Source: Patescibacteria group bacterium UBA1396
Lineage (GTDB): Bacteria > Patescibacteriota > Microgenomatia > UBA1400 > UBA1396
NCBI GenBank assembly: GCA_002305195.1
Contig: DBQK01000007.1
Coordinates: forward strand, 47,676 to 111,675
Direction: 5' to 3'
DNA length: 64,000 nt
The notes under the pieces are model-generated. The model saw nothing but the letters and a program-made list of their open reading frames with translations. It did not search any database and was not told where the DNA came from. Shown here one piece after another: positions 3,934-41,639 of this stretch. Position 1 is the first letter of the stretch. Each line of letters starts with the position of its first letter. The translations under genes were made by a program, and so were the position numbers.

Positions 3934-6037
3934 TTAGTCGAATCGATAAACCAGTTAGACCCATTAAACTAGCCAGACTAATTCCAACTTGCAGGGGCGA
4001 ACCAGTTTCTGGTAATTCTGTTGGAACCTCACCTTTTTTGGTCACTGGCTTCTCGCGTCGATTGCCAAACACAACCAGCTTAATTTTGTTTTCATCGACA
4101 GTAATGGTTTTTTCGGTGTCGGTAGTGGCGGTCCAACCGCTCTTGGTCTTTTCTCTAATGCGAACCACATCACCTTCTTCTAAGCCTCCAACTTCACCAC
4201 CTCGGCCGTCTTTCTCCTCATAGGTAATGTAATCTCGCCAGTCGTCATCATGATTGAGATCCCATTCAAATTCCCAGTCAAGACCTGGTTCTTCCTCATC
4301 GCGATAACCGTCGCCATCGTGGTCGTCGAATTTAGCTATCACAAAGCCACCGCGCTCTTCTTCTTCAAAGCGGTAATGATCGGTACAATTATCAGCTACA
4401 TTTGTTTCGGAGGCGCAGTTACCGTTCTCACAGGGAATACAGCGGATATCAAAGTACTCGCTGATCTCAATTTCCGGAGAGACATTGCTTGAACTAGAGG
4501 CTAAAACCGAGTAGTTATCACCTTTGCTGCGTCGATACTCAAAGGTGTAACTGTTTATTCCGTTATAAGCGGTACAAACAAAGCTAACTTTTTCATTTTC
4601 TTTTACCTTTTGATCATCTTTTGGCTCGATATCTTCACAGTAAGGAGCCTTTGGCGTTGGACTAGGACTGGGGCTAGCTTTTGGTGTTGGACTCGGGCTT
4701 GCCTTAGGTGTTGGTGAAGGACTTGGAGATGGCGAAGCCTTTGGTGTGGGTGAAGGCGAGGGGCTCGGTGAAGGTGATGGAGATGGAGACGGGCTAGGAC
4801 TCACTTTAGGCGTTGGGCTGGGACTCACCTTGGGAGTGGGCGAGGGGCTCGGTGAAGGTGATACTTTTGGCGTTGGACTAGGACTGGGGCTTGGGCTAGG
4901 ACTTGCCTTAGGTGTGGGTGAAGGACTTGGAGATGGTGTTGGGCTGGGAAGTGGTTGTTGTACTTTTGCTTTGAAATAAGCAACCAATTTGAAATCCCAG
5001 CAACCTTCAACTTCGCCATTACGGCCAACAGTTATACCATCTGGAGTAATAATGTTATCTGACTGTGGTTGATTGATATCATAACAACCAAACAAGCTTG
5101 GACAACCGTGAATTCTAACAGTACCTGGAACGAACTCAAGTGAAAAAGCGGTTTCATCAGTTAGTTCAACATTACCGGTCACTGGATCAGCATTATCGGC
5201 ATCAATAAAGCCGGTTATGGTGTGCTGGGTTAGTGTTTCTGTTGGCCAATCAAGAATTCCAACATTAGTGTTCAGAGACTTTGTTCCTCTGGGGTTGTTA
5301 TGAATTACTAGCTTGAACTCAACTTCATCGTTAGGAGAAAGACCATTGATTGATTCACGAAAATCGGTTTCACCCAAGCGTCTGATTTCCAAGGTTGGTT
5401 CGTCGGTTGAGTGAGCGTTAAAGATAGCTTTATTGCCATCAACAACCTCTAATTCGTATTTAACGGTATATTGATGGTTGGCGCCTGACTCGGTTTGTCC
5501 GCCAATAATATTTTCCCAATGAAAGCCAATTTCCGGATCCTTACTTACAGAAAATAATTTGCTTTCAGCTGCGTAATTATCGGGAATTGATTCAACTACC
5601 CAATCGCCACTTACATTGGTAAGAGCTTTGGTTGAACCCCGCTTATAGCTCAAGCTAAGATTATCTGCAAGCTCAAAAGTAGCTTGATTGCCACTGCCAA
5701 GATTGCCTTTATTGTCTGGATTAACCCAGGCAAGCACTCCATCATGGGCGAAGGCTCCGTAGTATTGCAGACTATCAATGGTTCTGCCCTCGTCTGTGTA
5801 GGTAGCTACTAAGTAAACGTGGATGGTATCTCCAACCTTCAGATTATCTAAGTGACCAGAAGTTGGGCCATCGATGGTGTTAACTCTTAATTGAGTACCA
5901 TAAACCAGGCCCTCAACAGGATCTGCTTTGGAGCTAAATTGCAGCCAACCAACAGAGGCAAAACCACCCAAAATAAACAGTGAAAATAAAATAGCGAGTA
6001 AGTTTTTGCTGGTTAATTTCGCAATTTTTTTAAACAT
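3911..6037 (-). CDS. LPXTG-anchored surface protein with a Pro/Ser/Thr repeat stalk and an SdrD-B/Cna-B-like domain
   Basis: N-terminal signal peptide ([17 protein letters not shown]). C-terminal sorting signal LPETG plus hydrophobic helix plus RLIGLRLKP. Acidic [15 protein letters not shown] module. AGGAG SD before the ATG at 6037. Confidence 0.85.
4647..4950 (-). repeat. tandem coding repeat, units PSPSP(S)TPK[A/V]S
   Basis: About 300 nt of imperfect short tandem repeats visible in the DNA (ggactnggnctnggn...ttnggngt). They encode the [18 protein letters not shown] stalk of the LPETG protein. Confidence 0.8.
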
Positions 6038-8071: not shown

Positions 8072-9013
8072 TTATCGGTTTTTTCTTTGTTCTAAATCAT
8101 AATATACCGATACAGCAATGAACGGACTTGAATACGTGCCGCAAATAGTTCCAACCAATAATGCCACTGCAAACCATAGCAAACTAGATCCACCCAAGAG
8201 AATTAAGGCCACCAGCATAAAAGCAATAGTTAGTGAGTTATTTATTGATCTAATAATGGTTTGAGTAACAGCGGTGTTAATTAAATCTTTCAAGTTAATA
8301 TATCTAGCCTGGGTGTGTTGAAGTTCTCTGACTCTGTCAAACATAACGATGGTGTCGTGAACAGAAAAAGAAAGAGTGGTTAATAGGGCGGTCACAAATA
8401 GTAAATCAACTTGTGTACCGAACCATCTGCCAAACCAAGTAAATAACCCGGCTAAAATAACGGCATCATGAAGCATGGCACTGGTGGCAGCAATGCCGAA
8501 CCGCCAGTTTTTAAATTGCCACCAAACATAAAGCAAAATAATTCCCACTCCCAATAAGCCAGCAATGAGAGTTTTCTGCAGGATTTCTTGGCTTAGAGCC
8601 GGTCCAACCGACTGGAACCTAATCTCACTAATTTCATAACCAAGTAATTTCTCTCGTAAGCTAGCTAGAAACTGATTTTTTTGTTCTTCAGTAATTTCTG
8701 AAAGAGACAATCGCCATTTAGTATTGGTGGATGCATTAGCATTATCGGTATTAATATTTGTTGCTTCACTTTGTAAAATCTCAATTTCTTGCTGGGACAA
8801 AATATCTCTTATAGTGCCGTCGATCTGCTCAGCGTTAAGACTCTCGCCTTCTGCCTGCGCGAAATCAAGCAGTACCATTTCCAGTTCAAGTTCTGATCCG
8901 CCACTGAATTCAAGCGATAATTTAAAGCCGTTTAGAATAATTCCTAGAAAACTAAAGCTAATTATTAAAAGTGAAAATATGTAATAAAGATATCGTTTTC
9001 CAAGCCAATTCAT
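8072..9013 (-). CDS. secF: protein translocase subunit SecF
   Basis: LSLEFSGGSELE and SFSVHDTIVMFDRVRE motifs with a six-TM pattern. AAAGGAA SD. Confidence 0.9.
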   Translation of the reverse strand: MNWLGKRYLYYIFSLLIISFSFLGIILNGFKLSLEFSGGSELELEMVLLDFAQAEGESLNAEQIDGTIRDILSQQEIEILQSEATNINTDNANASTNTKWRLSLSEITEEQKNQFLASLREKLLGYEISEIRFQSVGPALSQEILQKTLIAGLLGVGIILLYVWWQFKNWRFGIAATSAMLHDAVILAGLFTWFGRWFGTQVDLLFVTALLTTLSFSVHDTIVMFDRVRELQHTQARYINLKDLINTAVTQTIIRSINNSLTIAFMLVALILLGGSSLLWFAVALLVGTICGTYSSPFIAVSVYYDLEQRKNR

Positions 9014-17252: not shown

Positions 17253-17759
17253 CTATTTTTTGTTAACTGAACTAATATATTTGGCCGGATTTTTAATGAA
17301 TTTTTCATAGCAGCCGGTAGCGCAGAAATAGTAGGACTCGCCTTGATACTTAATACCAACACTAGCAGTTTTGGGTGACAATCTCATATGACAAACAGGG
17401 TCATGAACTAGCGGTACCAAATCCGTCATTTTTAAGGTCAGTTCATCTACTAGTTTTTGATCCTTCAAATCTTGAGCTTGTTCAACCAACACTTCTCGAA
17501 TTAAATCGCTCGCTTTAACGAAATTAATATGGGATAGCCGATAGTAAACGTTTTTACCCTGCTTTTTAGTTTTAAGAATATTAGCTTCTTTGAGAATTTG
17601 CAGGTGCTGGCTTAGATTTGCTTGAGGTAGTCCCAACATTTCCTGAATATCACTTACACAAAGCTTTTGATTTCTTAATAAGTGAATAATTTCCAGTCGC
17701 TTAGGATGTGACATTGCCCTGAGAACTTTGGAATGTAAAGCAAAAATGTGATGATACAT
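17253..17759 (-). CDS. ArsR/SmtB-family metalloregulator fused to a C-terminal YHS (TRASH-like) metal-binding domain
   Basis: wHTH region HPKRLEIIHLLRNQKLCVSDIQEMLGLPQANLSQHLQILKEANIL. C-terminal DPVCHMRLSPKTASVGIKYQGESYYFCATGCYEKFIKNPAKY matches YHS. The track ORF extends to 17885, but that extension covers the promoter and palindrome. Met43 (ATG at 17759) gives a normal ArsR length. Confidence 0.8.
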   Translation of the reverse strand: MYHHIFALHSKVLRAMSHPKRLEIIHLLRNQKLCVSDIQEMLGLPQANLSQHLQILKEANILKTKKQGKNVYYRLSHINFVKASDLIREVLVEQAQDLKDQKLVDELTLKMTDLVPLVHDPVCHMRLSPKTASVGIKYQGESYYFCATGCYEKFIKNPAKYISSVNKK

Positions 17760-17801
17760 ATTAGGTATCTCGAATTTATTGCTTGGTGAGAGAAATGTCA
17801 A
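17754..17801 (-). promoter_or_regulatory. putative arsR-YHS promoter (TTGACA-17-TAAATT) with operator core overlapping the start codon
   Basis: On the minus strand: TTGACA (17801-17796), a 17-nt spacer, TAAATT (17778-17773), then GAGATACCTAATATGTATCATC. The core ATACCTAATATGTAT (17768-17754) is identical to the one at 41598-41612 and contains the ATG. Confidence 0.5.
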
Positions 17802-17812
17802 GGCTGTATGCT

Positions 17813-17854
17813 GAAGGCGCGATACTTTTTTTGCAAAAAAAGTATCGCGCCTTC
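17813..17854. repeat. perfect 42-bp palindrome
   Basis: GAAGGCGCGATACTTTTTTT-GC-AAAAAAAGTATCGCGCCTTC has 20-nt perfect arms. It lies in the divergent spacer between the arsR-YHS gene and dtd. Confidence 0.95.
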
Positions 17855-17916
17855 TCTTAATTAAATTTAAACCCCCCTCCTTCATCCCTGAATAAAAATT
17901 GGTAAGATAAAATTCT

Positions 17917-35227: not shown

Positions 35228-36310
35228 CTATTTTCCTACCATAAATTCCACCACGTCATTTTCTTGCATTTGATAATCTCTACCCTCTTGTCTAACTTTG
35301 CCATTTTCTTTGGTTGTTTTCCAGCCTTTGTAGGATAAAAAATCATTTAAATCAACGACTTGGGCATTGATAAAGTGTTTGGCAAAATCAGTGTGAATGA
35401 CTCCGGCCGCTTGTTGAGCGGTTGTGCCAACAGGAATTGTCCAGGCTTTGACCTCTTTTTCGCCTGCAGTATAGAAACTTTGTAATTTAAGAGTCCGGTA
35501 GGCAAGTTTAATAAAGGCATCCAGACCAACATCAGATTGCCCATATTCGGCCAAAAACTCAATTTTTTCATTAGAGGATAAGCTGGATAATTCTTCTTCA
35601 AGCTTGGCAGAAATAATAATAATTTTATCTGGTGAGATATTAAGTTGTGCTGCTAAATTCTTTTTAATTTCTTGCGCTTGAGTTAAATCCACATCGCCGA
35701 CGTTGGCTACCACGATCTCTGCTTTGGCTGTTAGTAGCGATAGCTCTTTGGCCAACGTCAGCTCTTCATCGGTATCAATAACTTTGCGAAGCGAGTAACC
35801 ATTATTCAAAGCTGTTCGCCATCTCTCGATAATTTGCCATCTGAGTATTTCCAAGGGCATTTTTTTACCTTTAGGCTCAGTTTGTTTTTCTAAGGTAGCA
35901 AGATCGGCAAGTTGAAGCTCTAGTTCAATTGTTTGATAATCCTCAACGGGATCGACTGAACCTTCTTTAATAATGTTGTCATCGTTAAAAAGACGTATCA
36001 CATGGGCGATAATGCTGGTCTCTCTGACATTGGCAAGGAATTTATTACCCAAACCTGCTCCCGTGGATGCTCCCTTAACCAAGCCAGCAATATCAACAAA
36101 TTCAACTGTGGAAGGAATAATTCTATTGGTATTAACTATTTCAGCCAACTTGATTAGATTATTGTCTGGAACCGGAACTACCCCAACATTTGGTTCAATC
36201 GTAGCAAAAGGATAATTGGCGGCTAAAGCCGCCTGTTTTTGCAGTAATGCGTTAAAGAGAGTGGACTTGCCAACATTGGGCAGACCAACGATGGCGACTG
36301 AAAAACTCAT
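35228..36310 (-). CDS. ychF: ribosome-binding ATPase YchF
   Basis: GLPNVGKSTLFNAL P-loop, a TGS-like C-terminus and the FIRAEV-type segment FINAQV. Confidence 0.9.
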   Translation of the reverse strand: MSFSVAIVGLPNVGKSTLFNALLQKQAALAANYPFATIEPNVGVVPVPDNNLIKLAEIVNTNRIIPSTVEFVDIAGLVKGASTGAGLGNKFLANVRETSIIAHVIRLFNDDNIIKEGSVDPVEDYQTIELELQLADLATLEKQTEPKGKKMPLEILRWQIIERWRTALNNGYSLRKVIDTDEELTLAKELSLLTAKAEIVVANVGDVDLTQAQEIKKNLAAQLNISPDKIIIISAKLEEELSSLSSNEKIEFLAEYGQSDVGLDAFIKLAYRTLKLQSFYTAGEKEVKAWTIPVGTTAQQAAGVIHTDFAKHFINAQVVDLNDFLSYKGWKTTKENGKVRQEGRDYQMQENDVVEFMVGK

Positions 36311-36320
36311 AACCCGCCAA

Positions 36321-39221
36321 TTATAACCTGGGTTGCGAATTGAAAGTACCCTGTTTCAGTGTCAGCGCATTAATGACCACAATTACTGATGAGAAACTCA
36401 TCAACAAGGCACCCACTGCTGGAGTTAAGCTAAATCCAAACGGGATAAACAGACCGGCTGCGGCCGGGATGGCCACAATGTTATAGCCCAGTGCCCAAAA
36501 AAGATTTTGTACCATCTTGGCATACACCTTTCTAGCCAACTTGATAAAAACAACCACATCTTGAGGATTACTGCTAGTTAGAATTACATCGCCAGCTTCA
36601 ATTGCCACCTCAGTCCCTGCTCCGATTGCAATACCAACGTCTGCTTGGGTTAGTGCCGGTGCATCATTAACTCCATCACCTACCATTACGACCACATTCC
36701 CTTCATCCTGGAGATCTTTAATGTACTTATATTTATTTTCTGGCAAAACTTGGGCGAAAAATGTGTCGATGCCCAATTCTTGTGATATTTTAGCCGCTAT
36801 TTTTTCATTATCGCCGGTTAACATTGCCACCTTTAATCCTAGATTATGAAGTTCTTTGACTGTCTGTTTAGAATTGTCTTTAATCTCATCAGCTAAAACT
36901 AATTCTCCAAGGATTTTATTATCTGAAACTATAGCTACGGGAATTGATTGATACTTACCAATAAAATATTTTTTACCTTCAACTACTCCCTCAATTCCTT
37001 TTCCGGCAATATTTTTCACCTGGCTAGCACTGCTTGTTTTTACATTCTTTTCTTTGGCATATTTAACTATCGACTGACCAATTAAATGTGTTGAGTGCGA
37101 CTCAAGGCTAGCTGCAATGCCTAATAGTTGGGTTTTATTTCCGTTTTTAGCGATAATTTTTGAGACGCCAAACTCACCTTTGGTAAGAGTGCCTGTTTTA
37201 TCAAATACTATGTAGTTAGCTTTTTTGGCTATCTCCATTTTTGCCATATCTTTAATAAATAAGCCATTTTCAACAGCTAATTTTGTGGCAATAGTCGAAA
37301 CAGTCGGAATGGCAAGTCCTAAAGCGTGTGGACAAGCAATTACCAACACAGTTATAGCTAGTGTTAAGGCAAAAGCAATTGGTGATCCGGCAATAAATAC
37401 CCAAATAACAACCGTCAAAATTGATACCGAAAGCGCCGTCAATGTGAGCCAGCTAGCTGCTTGATCAGCTAACTTCTGTGCGGATGGTTTGGTTTCACCC
37501 GCCTTCGCGATAAGTTTTTGTATTTGCCCGATGGTTGAGTTCTCTCCCACTTTGGTTAACTTAATTTCAACCGATCCATCAATGCAGATTGATCCAGCTA
37601 CAACCTTATCCCCCCTGAATTTGTTAAGAGGCTTGCTTTCACCGCTAATATGAGCTTCATTAAAATTAGAAGAACCACTCATAATCTGTCCATCGGCCGG
37701 TACTTTTTCACCAGCTAGAACACGAACTAAGTCACCTTCTTTTAGCTCTTGTAACTCGACCTTTTGTTCACTGCCATTTTTAATTAATCTGGCACTTTTA
37801 GGTAGTAATTTTGCGACTTCTTGCAAGGCATCACCGGCAGCCATAGAACTTTTTGCCTCCAAAAAATGACCAAAAAGTAAAATCCAAATTAGGGTTGAGA
37901 TTTCTAAATAAAATTCTGCATTAAGCGTTGGTAAAAAAGTTGAGGCTGTCGAAAATAAATAACCAGCCGTGATGGCAATGGAAACCAGAGTCATCATTCC
38001 ATACTGACGAGTAGAAATTTCAAGTTTAGCGTGTTGCAAAAACACCAAGCCAAAGTAAAAAATTAAGGTTGAGATCGTAAATTGCAAGATAGGCTGATCT
38101 AAACGACTAAATATCAATAGCGGCACGAGAAGTCCGGTAACAACAAAAAATCTTTGCAGAAAACTTTTTGCTGCATTAGGCTCGGCCATCATATTTGAAT
38201 GGTTATGATGACTGTGATGCCTGATGTCATCTGGTTTTGTACTTGAATTAATTAAGACTAAATCCATTCCTCCACACTTAGAACACTTACCAGGTTGGTC
38301 AGAAGTAATTTCAGGGTGCATCGGACAAGTGTATTTGTGATCATTGTTATCCACAGTTCCATTATTAGAGCTAAAGACCTTTTTGACAAATTTATATACA
38401 AAATACATTCCAGCAGTAGCAAAAATTAAGTCTAGACCAGGCTCACTGTTGACAGTTTCTGAAATGTTAAAGGCAATATTGTTGATAAACTTAGTAACCT
38501 GGCTTTCTGCCACCGTCATTCCTAGTTTTCCGATAGATGTGAGCCAGAGCATCAAAACACCGGTTACTCCAAATATTAGTGCAGCAACAACATTGGAAAC
38601 AAAAATATAATAATCTTTCTGTCCTATTTTTACCTGTCCAATCACCTTTTTTAGAACTGGTGCTTGTAGAATATTTTTCTTATGGATCCACAGTGAAGCT
38701 AAGTATAGTGGTGTAACCATACCTAATACATAAGCCATACCTACACCCAAAGATTGAAAAAACGTGGGACTTAGCGAGCTTAAAGTTACCACCCCAATTA
38801 AAACTGGCGCACAACAAGCACTGGTAATCCCTGAAAAAATTCCTAAAGTAAATGTTGAAAGTACATCATTATTCCGTTTACCATTTTGTTTGAAAGAAAT
38901 ATGGGGTATTGGGAATTTGACACCTAGCAAAGACAGCCCAGCTAAAATAAGCATAAAAACGCCACCGAAAATGTATGTTTGGTCATGAAGTTCAAAAAAC
39001 AATGATTGCAAGGCTTTGGCTCCCAGGACGATCGGCATCATCACCATCAGAATGCCCAAAGAATAAATCAGAGTCATAAAAAGCACTTGTTTGCGCTCTT
39101 TAAAGATGTTGCCAAGATAGGCGGGAAATAAGTAAGAAATACAGCAGGGAGCAAAAAGTGCCACTATTCCAGCGATGTATGCGGCGACTAAAGAGATTTG
39201 GTATAAACCTGAGGATTCCAT
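36321..39221 (-). CDS. fusion protein: CcdA/DsbD-like thiol-transport membrane domain + HMBD zinc-ribbon + His-rich segment + CopB-type P1B heavy-metal ATPase
   Basis: The N-terminal ~290 aa have the motifs FAPCCISYLFPAYLG and TSACCAPVLIGV in TM helices (CcdA-like PC motifs, here CC). Next come YTCPMHPEITSDQPGKCSKCGGMDLV and RHHSHHNHS. The ATPase core has VIACPHALGLAIP (CPH), FDKTGTLT, MLTGDN and GDGVNDAPAL. Confidence 0.85.
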   Translation of the reverse strand: MESSGLYQISLVAAYIAGIVALFAPCCISYLFPAYLGNIFKERKQVLFMTLIYSLGILMVMMPIVLGAKALQSLFFELHDQTYIFGGVFMLILAGLSLLGVKFPIPHISFKQNGKRNNDVLSTFTLGIFSGITSACCAPVLIGVVTLSSLSPTFFQSLGVGMAYVLGMVTPLYLASLWIHKKNILQAPVLKKVIGQVKIGQKDYYIFVSNVVAALIFGVTGVLMLWLTSIGKLGMTVAESQVTKFINNIAFNISETVNSEPGLDLIFATAGMYFVYKFVKKVFSSNNGTVDNNDHKYTCPMHPEITSDQPGKCSKCGGMDLVLINSSTKPDDIRHHSHHNHSNMMAEPNAAKSFLQRFFVVTGLLVPLLIFSRLDQPILQFTISTLIFYFGLVFLQHAKLEISTRQYGMMTLVSIAITAGYLFSTASTFLPTLNAEFYLEISTLIWILLFGHFLEAKSSMAAGDALQEVAKLLPKSARLIKNGSEQKVELQELKEGDLVRVLAGEKVPADGQIMSGSSNFNEAHISGESKPLNKFRGDKVVAGSICIDGSVEIKLTKVGENSTIGQIQKLIAKAGETKPSAQKLADQAASWLTLTALSVSILTVVIWVFIAGSPIAFALTLAITVLVIACPHALGLAIPTVSTIATKLAVENGLFIKDMAKMEIAKKANYIVFDKTGTLTKGEFGVSKIIAKNGNKTQLLGIAASLESHSTHLIGQSIVKYAKEKNVKTSSASQVKNIAGKGIEGVVEGKKYFIGKYQSIPVAIVSDNKILGELVLADEIKDNSKQTVKELHNLGLKVAMLTGDNEKIAAKISQELGIDTFFAQVLPENKYKYIKDLQDEGNVVVMVGDGVNDAPALTQADVGIAIGAGTEVAIEAGDVILTSSNPQDVVVFIKLARKVYAKMVQNLFWALGYNIVAIPAAAGLFIPFGFSLTPAVGALLMSFSSVIVVINALTLKQGTFNSQPRL

Positions 39222-39225
39222 TTTT

Positions 39226-39339
39226 CTAGTCAGCTTTCTTCCAAAAATACCTGATTAATACGACCTGAAGGAGAATAAAAAGAACATTAATAATTTCCCA
39301 AAAATAACCAAAACTAGGATTCATCATGTTTGTCATCAT
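39226..39339 (-). CDS. unannotated 37-aa Met-rich single-TM peptide
   Basis: Translation is MMTNMMNPSFGYFWEIINVLFILLQVVLIRYFWKKAD. Its ATG overlaps the TGA of the rhodanese gene (ATGA). Its TAG ends 4 nt before the ATPase ATG. It is too short for the ORF track. Confidence 0.45.
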   Translation of the reverse strand: MMTNMMNPSFGYFWEIINVLFILLQVVLIRYFWKKAD

Positions 39340-40079
39340 TTCTTAATAACGTTAGCTGTAATAGTTGCTGAAAGTTGGGGAAAATTTTGATTGTCGGTAT
39401 CAATGTAAATAGTTCTGGTCAGATCTCCTAAGTCAGTATCGTCTTTGTGTACCGCTGGATTAAAAGAAACCTTCACCAGGGTTGATTCATAAGGCTCCAG
39501 AGAATCTTTTTCTACTTCTGCGCTAGTGCAACTGCAGGAAGTTGACACTTTTGTTATTTCAAGTTTCTGAGTGGAGAAGTTGGTTAGGGTAAACTCGGCT
39601 TCAGAAATTTCTCCATATATTACGGTTCCTAAGTCACGAGTTACTGGGCTGATTTCAATAGCTTCATTTTGTTCTTTATAGCCGTTAATTCCACCAGCTA
39701 AATTAATAACATTGGTATACCCAAGATTCTTGAGTTCAACAGCGGCTTCTTGACTCATTGATCCTGATCGGCAATAAACAAGAATTTGGGTATTCTTGTC
39801 TGAAGGTAACTGTTGCAGATTATCAGATATCTCATTGTAAGGGATGAAGGCATCAGTGCCTGGGATATGACTTTGTTCTGGAATATGAACATCCAGCAAG
39901 AAAGCATTATCATTTTTAGATAGTTGTATAAACTCAGCTGTATCAACACTAGTTATCTGGTAATCAAAACCACTCAGCTCAGATTCAGCCTCATTTGTGT
40001 ATCTGGTTAACCAATATGTTGCACCGATACTTATAATAAAAGTTATTATCAGAAAAATTGTAATAATTCTTTTATACAT
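39336..40079 (-). CDS. membrane-anchored rhodanese (sulfurtransferase) fused to a DUF1573 domain
   Basis: Rhodanese region LLDVHIPEQSHIPGTDAFIP...ILVYCRSGSMSQEAA..L..LGYTNVINLAGGINGY with an active-site Cys loop. C-terminal EFTLTNFSTQKLEITKVSTSCSCTSAEV is a DUF1573-type region. N-terminal TM. Confidence 0.75.
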   Translation of the reverse strand: MYKRIITIFLIITFIISIGATYWLTRYTNEAESELSGFDYQITSVDTAEFIQLSKNDNAFLLDVHIPEQSHIPGTDAFIPYNEISDNLQQLPSDKNTQILVYCRSGSMSQEAAVELKNLGYTNVINLAGGINGYKEQNEAIEISPVTRDLGTVIYGEISEAEFTLTNFSTQKLEITKVSTSCSCTSAEVEKDSLEPYESTLVKVSFNPAVHKDDTDLGDLTRTIYIDTDNQNFPQLSATITANVIKK

Positions 40080-40082
40080 ACG

Positions 40083-41006
40083 TTATGCTCCACAACTAGT
40101 GCCTACGTTTTCTGTTCCTGGAATATTTCCAATTTGTTTCTTAATGTCTTGATAGCCTTGGGCACTACTATATTCAGCTGAGAGAACTGTTTGGGGGTTA
40201 ACATCTTCCCAAGCTATACCCTTTTCGGTTTCAAAATAATATGCTAGATCGACATAGGTAGTTGTAAACCAGTAGGAGTTAAAGGCTAAAGATGCCTCAT
40301 ACATTTCTTCTGAGGTCGCACCATTGGCAGCCATTAGTTCCAAAAGACCTAGAATCGCCATACCATGGTTGCAATCGGGAAAACTGGTTGGGTTGCCGCA
40401 GCAGGGTCGATAAATATTACCGCTTACCTCTGTCACCAAATCTTGCTGTTGTTGAGTTAAAGGTATGATTTCAGTGCTTGAGTATAAACTAACCGCATCA
40501 CGCTTGCCCAAAGTCCAGCCACCTGTTGAAGCAAAATTACCGATTCTATCTTGATATTCAGTGCCCATTACTCCTTTGGTTAAGACATCGCTTTTTTGTG
40601 TTAAACCTAACGCCCAAAGAGTGTTTACCCAAAAGTAAGCATTCTTAGGTGTAATGGTGATGCCTTCATTTTTTTTCTCGGTTAAATATGTAAGTAATTC
40701 TTGATAATCTGAATCAGGGTAGTTTTCTCTAAACTTTTCTAAATCAATGCCGCCTGCCTGAACTAATTTTAATCCAGTTTCTCCCCAATTTATATCAACG
40801 CTATAACCTTCATTAGGAGCTACTGTGTTGGCTAAAGAATTAGCGTCTAATGCTTTAGCTGCATTTTGTACTTCTGCATTATTGGCAATTTTTGGAGGTA
40901 CCAAAATATCAGAGTTTCTAACTATTAATAGGTAGGCGACTGTTAGTCCCAAGCCAGCAATTAGTATATCTTTTTTGTTATTTTTTAATCTGTTTATTAT
41001 TCTCAT
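40083..41006 (-). CDS. hypothetical membrane-anchored exported protein with CCGNPTSFPDCNHG motif
   Basis: 307 aa. N-terminal TM (ILIAGLGLTVAYLLIV). Cys/His cluster YRPCCGNPTSFPDCNHGMAILG and a C-terminal TSCGA. No family recognised. Confidence 0.55.
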   Translation of the reverse strand: MRIINRLKNNKKDILIAGLGLTVAYLLIVRNSDILVPPKIANNAEVQNAAKALDANSLANTVAPNEGYSVDINWGETGLKLVQAGGIDLEKFRENYPDSDYQELLTYLTEKKNEGITITPKNAYFWVNTLWALGLTQKSDVLTKGVMGTEYQDRIGNFASTGGWTLGKRDAVSLYSSTEIIPLTQQQQDLVTEVSGNIYRPCCGNPTSFPDCNHGMAILGLLELMAANGATSEEMYEASLAFNSYWFTTTYVDLAYYFETEKGIAWEDVNPQTVLSAEYSSAQGYQDIKKQIGNIPGTENVGTSCGA

Positions 41007-41010
41007 ATGA

Positions 41011-41550
41011 CTACTTCCTCACCATTGCAGTTAACATAAAATTTAACTGTGGGTTTGAGGGATCGTTGGTATCTACTTTTACCTGTCTATTTATCGGACC
41101 CACTCCACTTGGCCCATGAAACGCAGGGTCAAAAACAATCTTAAGCTGTGCCGTTTTACCACTTGGAACTTCAAGTGTATAGCCAGACTTGGTATGCATA
41201 CCAAAAATGGGCGAACTTTCTTCAGCATAACTGAGTTGGGCAGTAGTACACATACAAGATGTTTCTACGTTAGATAATATTAAAGAATCATTTCCAGCAT
41301 TTGTTATCTCAAATACTTTTTCAACATTACCATCATTAATTTCTATTTCTCCCCAATTGTAAGTAAATTCATCAATCACGGCTTTTGCTTCTGGATTTAT
41401 CTGAACTTCAGCTGGACTATTAATTGTTGAAGCAAGATATACTCCTGGAATTAACAATATAATTATGGCCACAAATGTGAGGATCATAAATTTGTTTTTT
41501 CCCAGCAAGCTATTTTGTTGTACTGGTTTAGCTTGAGATTTCATACGCAA
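41011..41550 (-). CDS. DUF1573 domain protein (membrane-anchored, exported)
   Basis: FEITNAGNDSLILSNVETSCMCTTAQL and later FDPAFHGPSGVG. The track start is a TTG at 41550. An ATG at 41544 with a GGAGG SD 10 nt upstream is the alternative. Confidence 0.7.
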   Translation of the reverse strand: MRMKSQAKPVQQNSLLGKNKFMILTFVAIIILLIPGVYLASTINSPAEVQINPEAKAVIDEFTYNWGEIEINDGNVEKVFEITNAGNDSLILSNVETSCMCTTAQLSYAEESSPIFGMHTKSGYTLEVPSGKTAQLKIVFDPAFHGPSGVGPINRQVKVDTNDPSNPQLNFMLTAMVRK

Positions 41551-41594
41551 CAGACCTCCGGTAATAATTAATTTTTAATTGCCCCAGTTATTTG

Positions 41595-41639
41595 AGAATA
41601 CATATTAGGTATTCTGAATATGTAATATAAAGTTGTCAA
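41595..41639 (-). promoter_or_regulatory. putative operon promoter (TTGACA-17-CAGAAT) with palindromic operator AGAATAC-N7-GTATTCT
   Basis: On the minus strand: TTGACA (41639-41634), a 17-nt spacer, CAGAAT (41616-41611). The perfect 7-7-7 inverted repeat at 41595-41615 overlaps the -10 and start region. The core at 41598-41612 is identical to 17754-17768. Confidence 0.5.

Follow-up and report, generated by a model that had tools for sequence, protein, structure and literature searches.

A predicted 26-bp operator links a distant ArsR-YHS regulator to a copper-export operon in Patescibacteria

CsoR, CopY, and CueR are characterised bacterial sensors of cytoplasmic copper, and proteins of the ArsR family are generally dimers. 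The 12-2-12 operators of ArsR/SmtB repressors extend over 26 bp and are situated at or near the transcription start; moreover, a regulator may be encoded far from its target, as is the case for AzuR and nmtA (PMC8790569). In archaea, the TRASH domain of CopR has been implicated in copper sensing. CopR possesses an Lrp-type helix-turn-helix (HTH), forms an octamer that wraps about 150 bp of DNA, and functions as a copper-dependent activator at divergent promoters (PMC7830388). The TRASH motif, in the form quoted in that paper from Ettema et al. (2003), reads C-X19-22-C-X3-C.

The window, i.e., the whole 64-kb stretch of Patescibacteria DNA analysed here, encodes on its minus strand a protein (17759-17253) composed of an ArsR-type DNA-binding module and a C-terminal YHS (TRASH) domain and, 24 kb away, a copper-export operon. 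With a probability of roughly 0.7, the segment 41599-41624 is the operator of this operon and is recognised by the ArsR-YHS protein, which would act as an apo-repressor released by Cu(I). Like the 12-2-12 operators of ArsR/SmtB repressors, the predicted site is a 26-bp imperfect inverted repeat that overlaps a promoter and its predicted transcription start, and, as for those repressors, autoregulation is predicted in addition to control of a P1B ATPase. Unlike the sites tabulated in PMC8790569, which carry a TGAA...TTCA core, it is built on ATATTC...GAATAT. The ArsR-YHS operator also differs from those of ArsR/SmtB proteins in that it overlaps the regulator's own start codon, and a leaderless or nearly leaderless mRNA is therefore implied. 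Like archaeal CopR and CopT (Sulfolobus, Pyrococcus, Thermococcus), the protein joins an N-terminal DNA-binding domain to a C-terminal TRASH-type Cys3 sensor. However, the DNA-binding module is of the ArsR type rather than the Lrp/AsnC-type HTH of CopR/CopT, the operator geometry predicts a repressor whereas CopR is an activator, and the hosts are bacteria (Patescibacteria) instead of archaea. Finally, ArsR-YHS is proposed to be a Cu(I)-responsive switch of a copA-type efflux operon, as are CsoR, CopY, and CueR, although the folds of these three sensors are unrelated to its own.

The regulator is a protein of 168 aa (17253-17759, minus strand). In Pfam, its HTH_5 domain (PF01022) is recognised with E = 3.7e-15 and 55.9 bits (cutoff 22) and its YHS domain (PF04945) with E = 6.5e-14 and 52.1 bits (cutoff 30.3); in NCBIfam, it passes the ArsR/SmtB metalloregulator model NF033788 with 88.1 bits against a cutoff of 55. 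The winged-helix fold and the family models are thus those of SmtB, ZiaR, CzrA, AztR, AzuR, and BxmR, and the HTH matches ArsR models only, not models of the Lrp/AsnC type. Methionine followed by Tyr or Phe is found at ATG 17759 in 24 of 25 aligned homologues (152-170 aa), the remaining one being N-terminally shorter; the start codon is therefore assigned to this ATG, which lies within the repeat, and not to the position at which it was first placed. The starts at 17885 and 17714 (the annotated start or that of the longest ORF) are excluded by the same homologue N-termini. JGI gene calls give the identical 168-aa product, and this form recurs on one 3-kb contig, where it has the same dtd neighbour; a 210-aa form of the product has no entry in the assembly index.

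A model of the regulator monomer (pLDDT 86.6) comprises an ArsR core, α1-α5 (residues 2-97), followed by a short helix, a linker, and a small β/α YHS module, and its secondary-structure elements follow the order of the ArsR family (α1-α2-α3-αR-β-hairpin-α5). In Foldseek comparisons, the N-terminal ~90 residues match CzrA, SmtB, and HlyU with target-normalised TM scores of 0.77-0.83 and NolR with about 0.8; among the structural and sequence matches, there was no solved structure spanning the YHS part. The recognition helix, QANLSQHL, is invariant across the aligned family, and DNA specificity should therefore be conserved across it. In an alignment of 26 sequences, just three cysteines are invariant, C123, C146, and C150; all belong to the YHS domain and follow the pattern C-X22-C-X3-C. 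This sets the protein apart from ArsR/SmtB repressors, whose canonical sensory sites (Cys on α3 or α3N; Asp/His/His/Glu on α5) are not conserved in it: Cys at position 34 is variable, and α5 has D85 without a conserved His. Proteins of this composition bear only automatic names in databases, and the literature searched, including that on copper regulation in Patescibacteria, yielded no description of an ArsR-YHS (or ArsR-TRASH) regulator.

The putative target operon is also encoded on the minus strand. Its first gene (41011..41550) specifies a membrane-anchored DUF1573 protein of 179 aa (Pfam PF07610, E = 1.4e-13) that starts with TTG at 41550 or ATG at 41544; in a reading of the sequence together with the list of ORFs, a Shine-Dalgarno sequence, GGAGG, precedes it at 41555-41559. 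The second gene (40083..41006) encodes a 307-aa protein without a match in Pfam or NCBIfam. It contains the cysteine motif CCGNP...FPDCNHGM and has at least 531 relatives in metagenomes; those with enough flanking DNA are usually located beside genes for DsbD-like, DUF1573, rhodanese, or copper-ATPase proteins, a neighbourhood that is also found in lineages without the ArsR-YHS regulator. The protein represents an uncharacterised family that is likely tied to copper or thiol handling. The third gene (39336..40079) encodes a 247-aa fusion of rhodanese and DUF1573 (PF00581, PF07610), and the fourth (36321..39221) a 966-aa fusion protein in which an N-terminal membrane domain and an HMBD are joined to a P1B copper ATPase. 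The latter scores 556.7 bits with the copper-translocating model TIGR01511 (cutoff 397) versus 381.2 bits with the Cd/Zn model; it contains the Pfam domains E1-E2_ATPase, Hydrolase, and HMBD (PF19335), and its translation includes ACPHALGLAIP (CPH), FDKTGTLT (DKTGT), and a His-rich motif. One related sequence, L081, is 100% identical; its contig ends within the gene for the 307-aa protein and so lacks the promoter that could be compared with site A. Downstream of the operon and on the same strand, the gene for the GTPase YchF (35228-36310, minus strand) starts 10 nt past the stop codon of the ATPase gene. No terminator was noted, and the gene may be co-transcribed with the metal operon.

The arrangement in the window was compared with that around the best 80 of 550 relatives of the regulator (one genome per species), nearly all of which come from metagenome-assembled genomes of Microgenomates and other Patescibacteria. 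Many records in this set (L001-L080) carry titles such as 'uncultured Pseudomonadales', 'Gammaproteobacteria', or 'Rikenellaceae' despite a gene content typical of Patescibacteria; such titles appear to reflect wrong taxonomic labels at the source. Complete genomes with the regulator include CP011210.1, CP055307.1, and CP011212.1. Among these 80 relatives, 76 loci extend far enough downstream of the regulator gene; in 70 of them, it is directly followed by a P1B ATPase gene on the same strand, and DUF1573 and/or 307-aa genes are inserted between the two in 29 loci. As for CopR/CopT, the regulator gene is thus usually the neighbour of a copper P1B ATPase gene. The regulator is therefore normally encoded by the first gene of the operon, and the 24-kb gap in the window is an exception.

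Upstream of the orthologous regulators, a conserved 26-bp palindrome, (T/A)A(C/T)ATATTC-N8-GAATATGTA, ends at codon 2 (78 sites). In the 80 loci, the regulators start with MY at an ATG inside this palindrome, whose GAATAT core ends with the A and the T of that ATG. When the arms are read in a 9-8-9 frame, a mean of 6.7 of 9 positions are complementary, and the best dyad frames all share one centre, at -8.5. Two promoter arrangements are common. In 24 loci, the -35 box TTGACA is found at -42 or -43, the -10 box coincides with the left arm (TATATT), and the leader would be about 6-8 nt long. In 21 loci, TTGACA is found at -35 or -36, the -10 box lies in the spacer (TAATAT), and transcription is predicted to start at or next to the ATG; mRNAs of this second class would be leaderless. 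Some loci deviate from the pattern. In particular, Collierbacteria-type loci (L035, L040, L093, and L096) fall below the matrix threshold upstream of the regulator ATG; L035 has an operator shifted by 2 nt, ATATTC-N8-GAATGT, whose arm itself supplies the ATG, and no obvious operator is seen in the upstream sequence of L040.

In several genomes, a further operator occurs at other positions of the cluster. It precedes a DUF1573 gene in L006 (2038-2063), L043 (10533-10558), and L074 (297-322); a 307-aa-like gene, whose ATG it overlaps, in L015 (9018-9043); and a DsbA-like + DsbD_TM gene pair in L075 and L076 (about 8485-8510). The promoter-operator cassette is therefore reused within the gene cluster. 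The region of L075 (8485-15441), assigned to Woesebacteria and found also in L076, consists of an operator, DsbA-like, DsbD_TM, a second operator, ArsR-YHS, cupredoxin-like, CsoR-like (PF02583), DUF1573 and other genes, and the ATPase; two different predicted copper regulators are thus encoded in one cluster. As the CsoR-like gene coexists there with ArsR-YHS, the two are not simple substitutes for each other.

The 78 orthologous sites, without those of the window, served to build a weight matrix, with which both strands of the 64 kb were scanned. The two top matches were 41599-41624 (site A; 23.4 bits on the minus and 21.2 bits on the plus strand) and 17755-17780 (site B; 22.1 bits), followed at a distance by a match of 8.9 bits; in 30 shuffles of the window, the maxima had a mean of 12.1 and reached 19.0 at the highest. 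The family median is 32 bits, so that both window sites, at 22-23 bits, stand at the low end. The consensus ACATATTC-N8-GAATATGT, with at most one mismatch, has a single occurrence in the window, at 41600-41623, and none in 100 shuffles. As a control, 453 kb of loci with the 307-aa gene and without the regulator gave a maximum of 15.6 bits, with no match of 16 or more. In the metagenome set, every locus with an operator of at least 17 bits also encodes the regulator, and an operator is present in 6 of the 8 metagenome loci that have a near-full-length regulator and upstream DNA. By comparison with orthologous loci, the predicted regulator-target link is strongly supported.

Site A, read on the minus strand, is TACATATTC-AGAATACC-TAATATGTA. 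In this 9-8-9 palindrome, the arms are complementary at 8 of 9 positions, and there is one mismatch to the family consensus over the 16 specified bases. The predicted sigma-70-type promoter of the operon (41611..41639, minus strand) consists of TTGACA (41639-41634), 17 nt, and CAGAAT (41616-41611); this TTGACA-17-CAGAAT promoter, noted in the original prediction, was recovered by a promoter scan with 10 of 12 matches, although its predicted -10 box is weak. The -10 box sits at the junction of the left arm and the spacer of site A, and, counted from the ATG within the operator, the -35 box begins at -36, which corresponds to the second class of geometry. Site B, the second-best match, reads AATAAATTC-GAGATACC-TAATATGTA on the minus strand. 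The regulator ATG (17759-17757) is contained in its right arm, a placement that is identical in about 70 orthologues. The promoter predicted for the regulator gene (17773..17801, minus strand) was likewise recovered by the scan and comprises TTGACA (17801-17796), 17 nt, and TAAATT (17778-17773); here, the -10 box coincides with the left arm of the site and the -35 box is at -42, i.e., the geometry is that of the first class, with a predicted leader of only about 6-8 nt. Sites A and B therefore exemplify the two arrangements that are both common among the orthologues. It had been proposed that the two copies hold the same position relative to their promoters, which proved wrong, since the -35 boxes start at -36 and -42, a difference of 6 bp. 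Between the divergent genes for ArsR-YHS (minus strand) and dtd (17917, plus strand), there is a hairpin with a perfect 19-bp stem (17813-17854), GAAGGCGCGATACTTTTTTT-GCAA-AAAAAGTATCGCGCCTTC, that resembles a terminator; neither flanking gene ends there.

The connection across 24 kb had originally been proposed on the basis of other features of the same DNA, namely a perfect 7-7-7 inverted repeat, AGAATAC-ATATTAG-GTATTCT (41595..41615), and a 15-nt core common to the operon and the regulator gene. The repeat is present as described, and the 15 nucleotides at 41598-41612 are indeed identical to those at 17754-17768 (ATACATATTAGGTAT, plus strand in both cases), with no further exact copy in the window. 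The accompanying caution that one such coincidence might be due to chance was justified by the repeat statistics. Apart from this pair, about 12 exact repeats of at least 15 nt (15-18 nt), independent of one another, were counted in the window, and 5.9 same-strand 15-mer pairs are expected under a first-order Markov model; perfect 7-7-7 inverted repeats number 4, versus 6.5 +/- 2.2 expected. Both features being at chance level, they were dropped as statistical evidence, and the case must therefore stand on other evidence. A segment elsewhere in the window (4650-4920) contains several direct repeats that are 15-26 nt long and lie 84-216 nt from one another, a pattern suggestive of repetitive, perhaps Gly/Leu-rich, coding sequence.

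The family operator accounts for the composition of both features. The shared 15-mer corresponds to the right arm of the operator, the 3' half of the spacer, and the first T of the codon after the ATG; at the regulator gene, the 15-mer region (17754-17768) reads ATACCTAAT-ATG-TAT on the minus strand and contains the start codon. The perfect palindrome at site A is made up of GAATAC, from the spacer, and GTATTC, located 3' of the right arm, and it overlaps the operator 6.5 bp out of register. If this palindrome were the regulator's true site in this lineage, its core ATAC-N7-GTAT, shared with GATAC-N7-GTATC at 17753-17769, would be the element recognised. Both palindromes do exist, have 15 identical bases in common, and represent the only two ATAC-N7-GTAT sites of the window. 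However, two such sites were equalled or exceeded in 13 of 100 shuffles, and perfect repeats of this kind are no commoner than in random sequence. In the 78 orthologous sites, the 7-7-7 frame is complementary at 2.2 of 7 positions, which is the chance level, whereas the family frame is conserved. Moreover, its half-sites (GAATAC...GTATTC) point in the opposite direction to those of the family (ATATTC...GAATAT), and a change of specificity is not expected of a protein with an invariant recognition helix. A 7-7-7 binding site is thus considered very unlikely. What the original prediction sought in orthologous promoters is found there as the 26-bp 9-8-9 operator and not in the 7-7-7 frame. The link itself is strongly supported, by the orthologous loci and not by the 15-mer, while the anatomy first given for it, with a dyad 6.5 bp off, is wrong: the flagged link is probably real, and the flagged palindrome is not the conserved element.

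An explanation that attributes even the likeness of the two sites to chance or to neutral history has also been considered, according to which the 15-mer was carried along with a copied or moved regulator gene and one or both sites are no longer bound. Exact 15-mer repeats are expected by chance in the window, the right arm necessarily travels with the start codon of the gene, and both sites score below the family median. Furthermore, each has a G-to-T change in its right arm, to which site B adds a mismatch in the left arm; inheritance by duplication, rather than selection, could explain part of the likeness. Yet both sites score far higher with the independently trained matrix than anything else in the window or in the 453-kb control. 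In favour of a functional link, both window sites also share a T at -4 that is rare in the family (2 of 78 loci) and a rare C at -6 (5 of 78). Left of the identical 15-mer, where the sites agree mainly at family-conserved positions, the left arms retain the bases that the family conserves, and other genomes independently have operators before the same kinds of genes. A pair of relics or chance matches is therefore regarded as scarcely probable, and sites A and B are treated below as predicted operators.

Site A is more similar to the regulator promoters of L087 (31/36) and L010 (28/32) than to site B. For this reason, it is suggested that site A may be the ancestral promoter of a joint regulator-operon unit, left behind once the regulator gene had relocated. 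No second copy of the regulator was found within the 64-kb window. The stretch from site A to the DUF1573 gene was also searched for traces of a regulator gene since deleted, and similarity in local alignments was confined to the operator and the first few codons. In this region, an ORF of 11 codons (41603-41568, minus strand) begins with an ATG inside the operon operator (ATG TAT TCT CAA ATA ... TAA). Its first five codons encode M-Y-S-Q-I, a common N-terminus in the regulator family (e.g., L035), and the ORF may be what is left of a regulator gene formerly at the head of the operon or a leaderless mini-ORF.

The proposed mechanism may be outlined as follows. In the metal-free state, a dimer of the regulator would occupy the -10 box and transcription start of both promoters and block RNA polymerase. 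Cu(I) would be bound by the three invariant YHS/TRASH cysteines, C123, C146, and C150, whereupon the metal-bound regulator would leave the DNA, and both the pump operon and the regulator gene would be de-repressed. In nearly all relatives, one operator would serve both, as the regulator gene comes first in the operon; here, the gene is unlinked, and each part would have kept an operator of its own. Motif conservation, its placement over the promoters, its co-occurrence with the regulator, and gene linkage are observed, whereas we infer from them that the regulator binds these sites. As the operator covers the predicted -10 box and transcription start, the geometry at both promoters is that of a repressor. 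Some ArsR-family proteins, e.g., HlyU, are activators, and for this reason repression should be read as a prediction from the position of the operator alone.

Copper is a plausible signal in view of the subfamily of the ATPase, the cupredoxin-like and CsoR-like genes found near the regulator gene in L075, and the part attributed to TRASH in archaeal CopR. As the operon also includes rhodanese and DsbD-like genes, a thiol, persulfide, or other soft-metal signal is possible. The pairing of regulator and operon could accordingly be correct but follow another logic, in which the YHS cysteines respond to thiol, persulfide, or redox state or to another soft metal (Ag, Hg, Cd, or Zn), or in which the protein acts as an activator or anti-silencer. 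The operon does encode rhodanese, a DsbD-like membrane domain, and Cys-motif proteins, and extra operators occur before the DsbA + DsbD_TM pair; by sequence, the closest solved relatives of the regulator include BigR, SqrR, and HlyU, and a separate CsoR-like copper repressor is encoded in the L075 cluster. On the other hand, the ATPase fits the copper subfamily best, and an operator over the -10 box and transcription start is the arrangement of a repressor. A persulfide sensor of the BigR/SqrR type in the winged-helix part was rejected, since that part, with which BigR and SqrR sense persulfide, has no conserved cysteine. Another logic is thus deemed unlikely, and Cu(I)-released repression is retained as the preferred reading. 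The regulon may be larger than the part seen in the 64 kb scanned.

Considered as a family, ArsR-YHS proteins may constitute a previously uncharacterised class of bacterial copper sensors and, in Microgenomates and related Patescibacteria, perhaps the principal one, a view considered slightly more likely than not. In such a class, an appended TRASH-type Cys3 domain would have taken over sensing from the canonical ArsR sites, the 26-bp operator would double as the -10 box and hold the start codon, the message would be leaderless or nearly so, and the cassette would be reused before different first genes. An operator that overlaps the start codon would, by its nature, travel with the regulator gene on relocation.

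Patescibacteria (CPR bacteria) are mostly uncultured, and, to our knowledge, almost nothing is known about gene regulation in these organisms. The present analysis provides a concrete predicted regulator-operator pair for them, whose consensus draws on about 80 genomes, together with an effector domain predicted to lie elsewhere than at the classical ArsR/SmtB sensory sites and a defined set of putative targets: DUF1573 proteins, the unannotated Cys-motif protein, rhodanese, DsbD-like and DsbA modules, and the CopB-like ATPase. Joint control of this set suggests a copper and thiol module for envelope protection. If the proposed reading is true, ArsR-YHS would be a bacterial counterpart of archaeal CopR built on a different DNA-binding scaffold.
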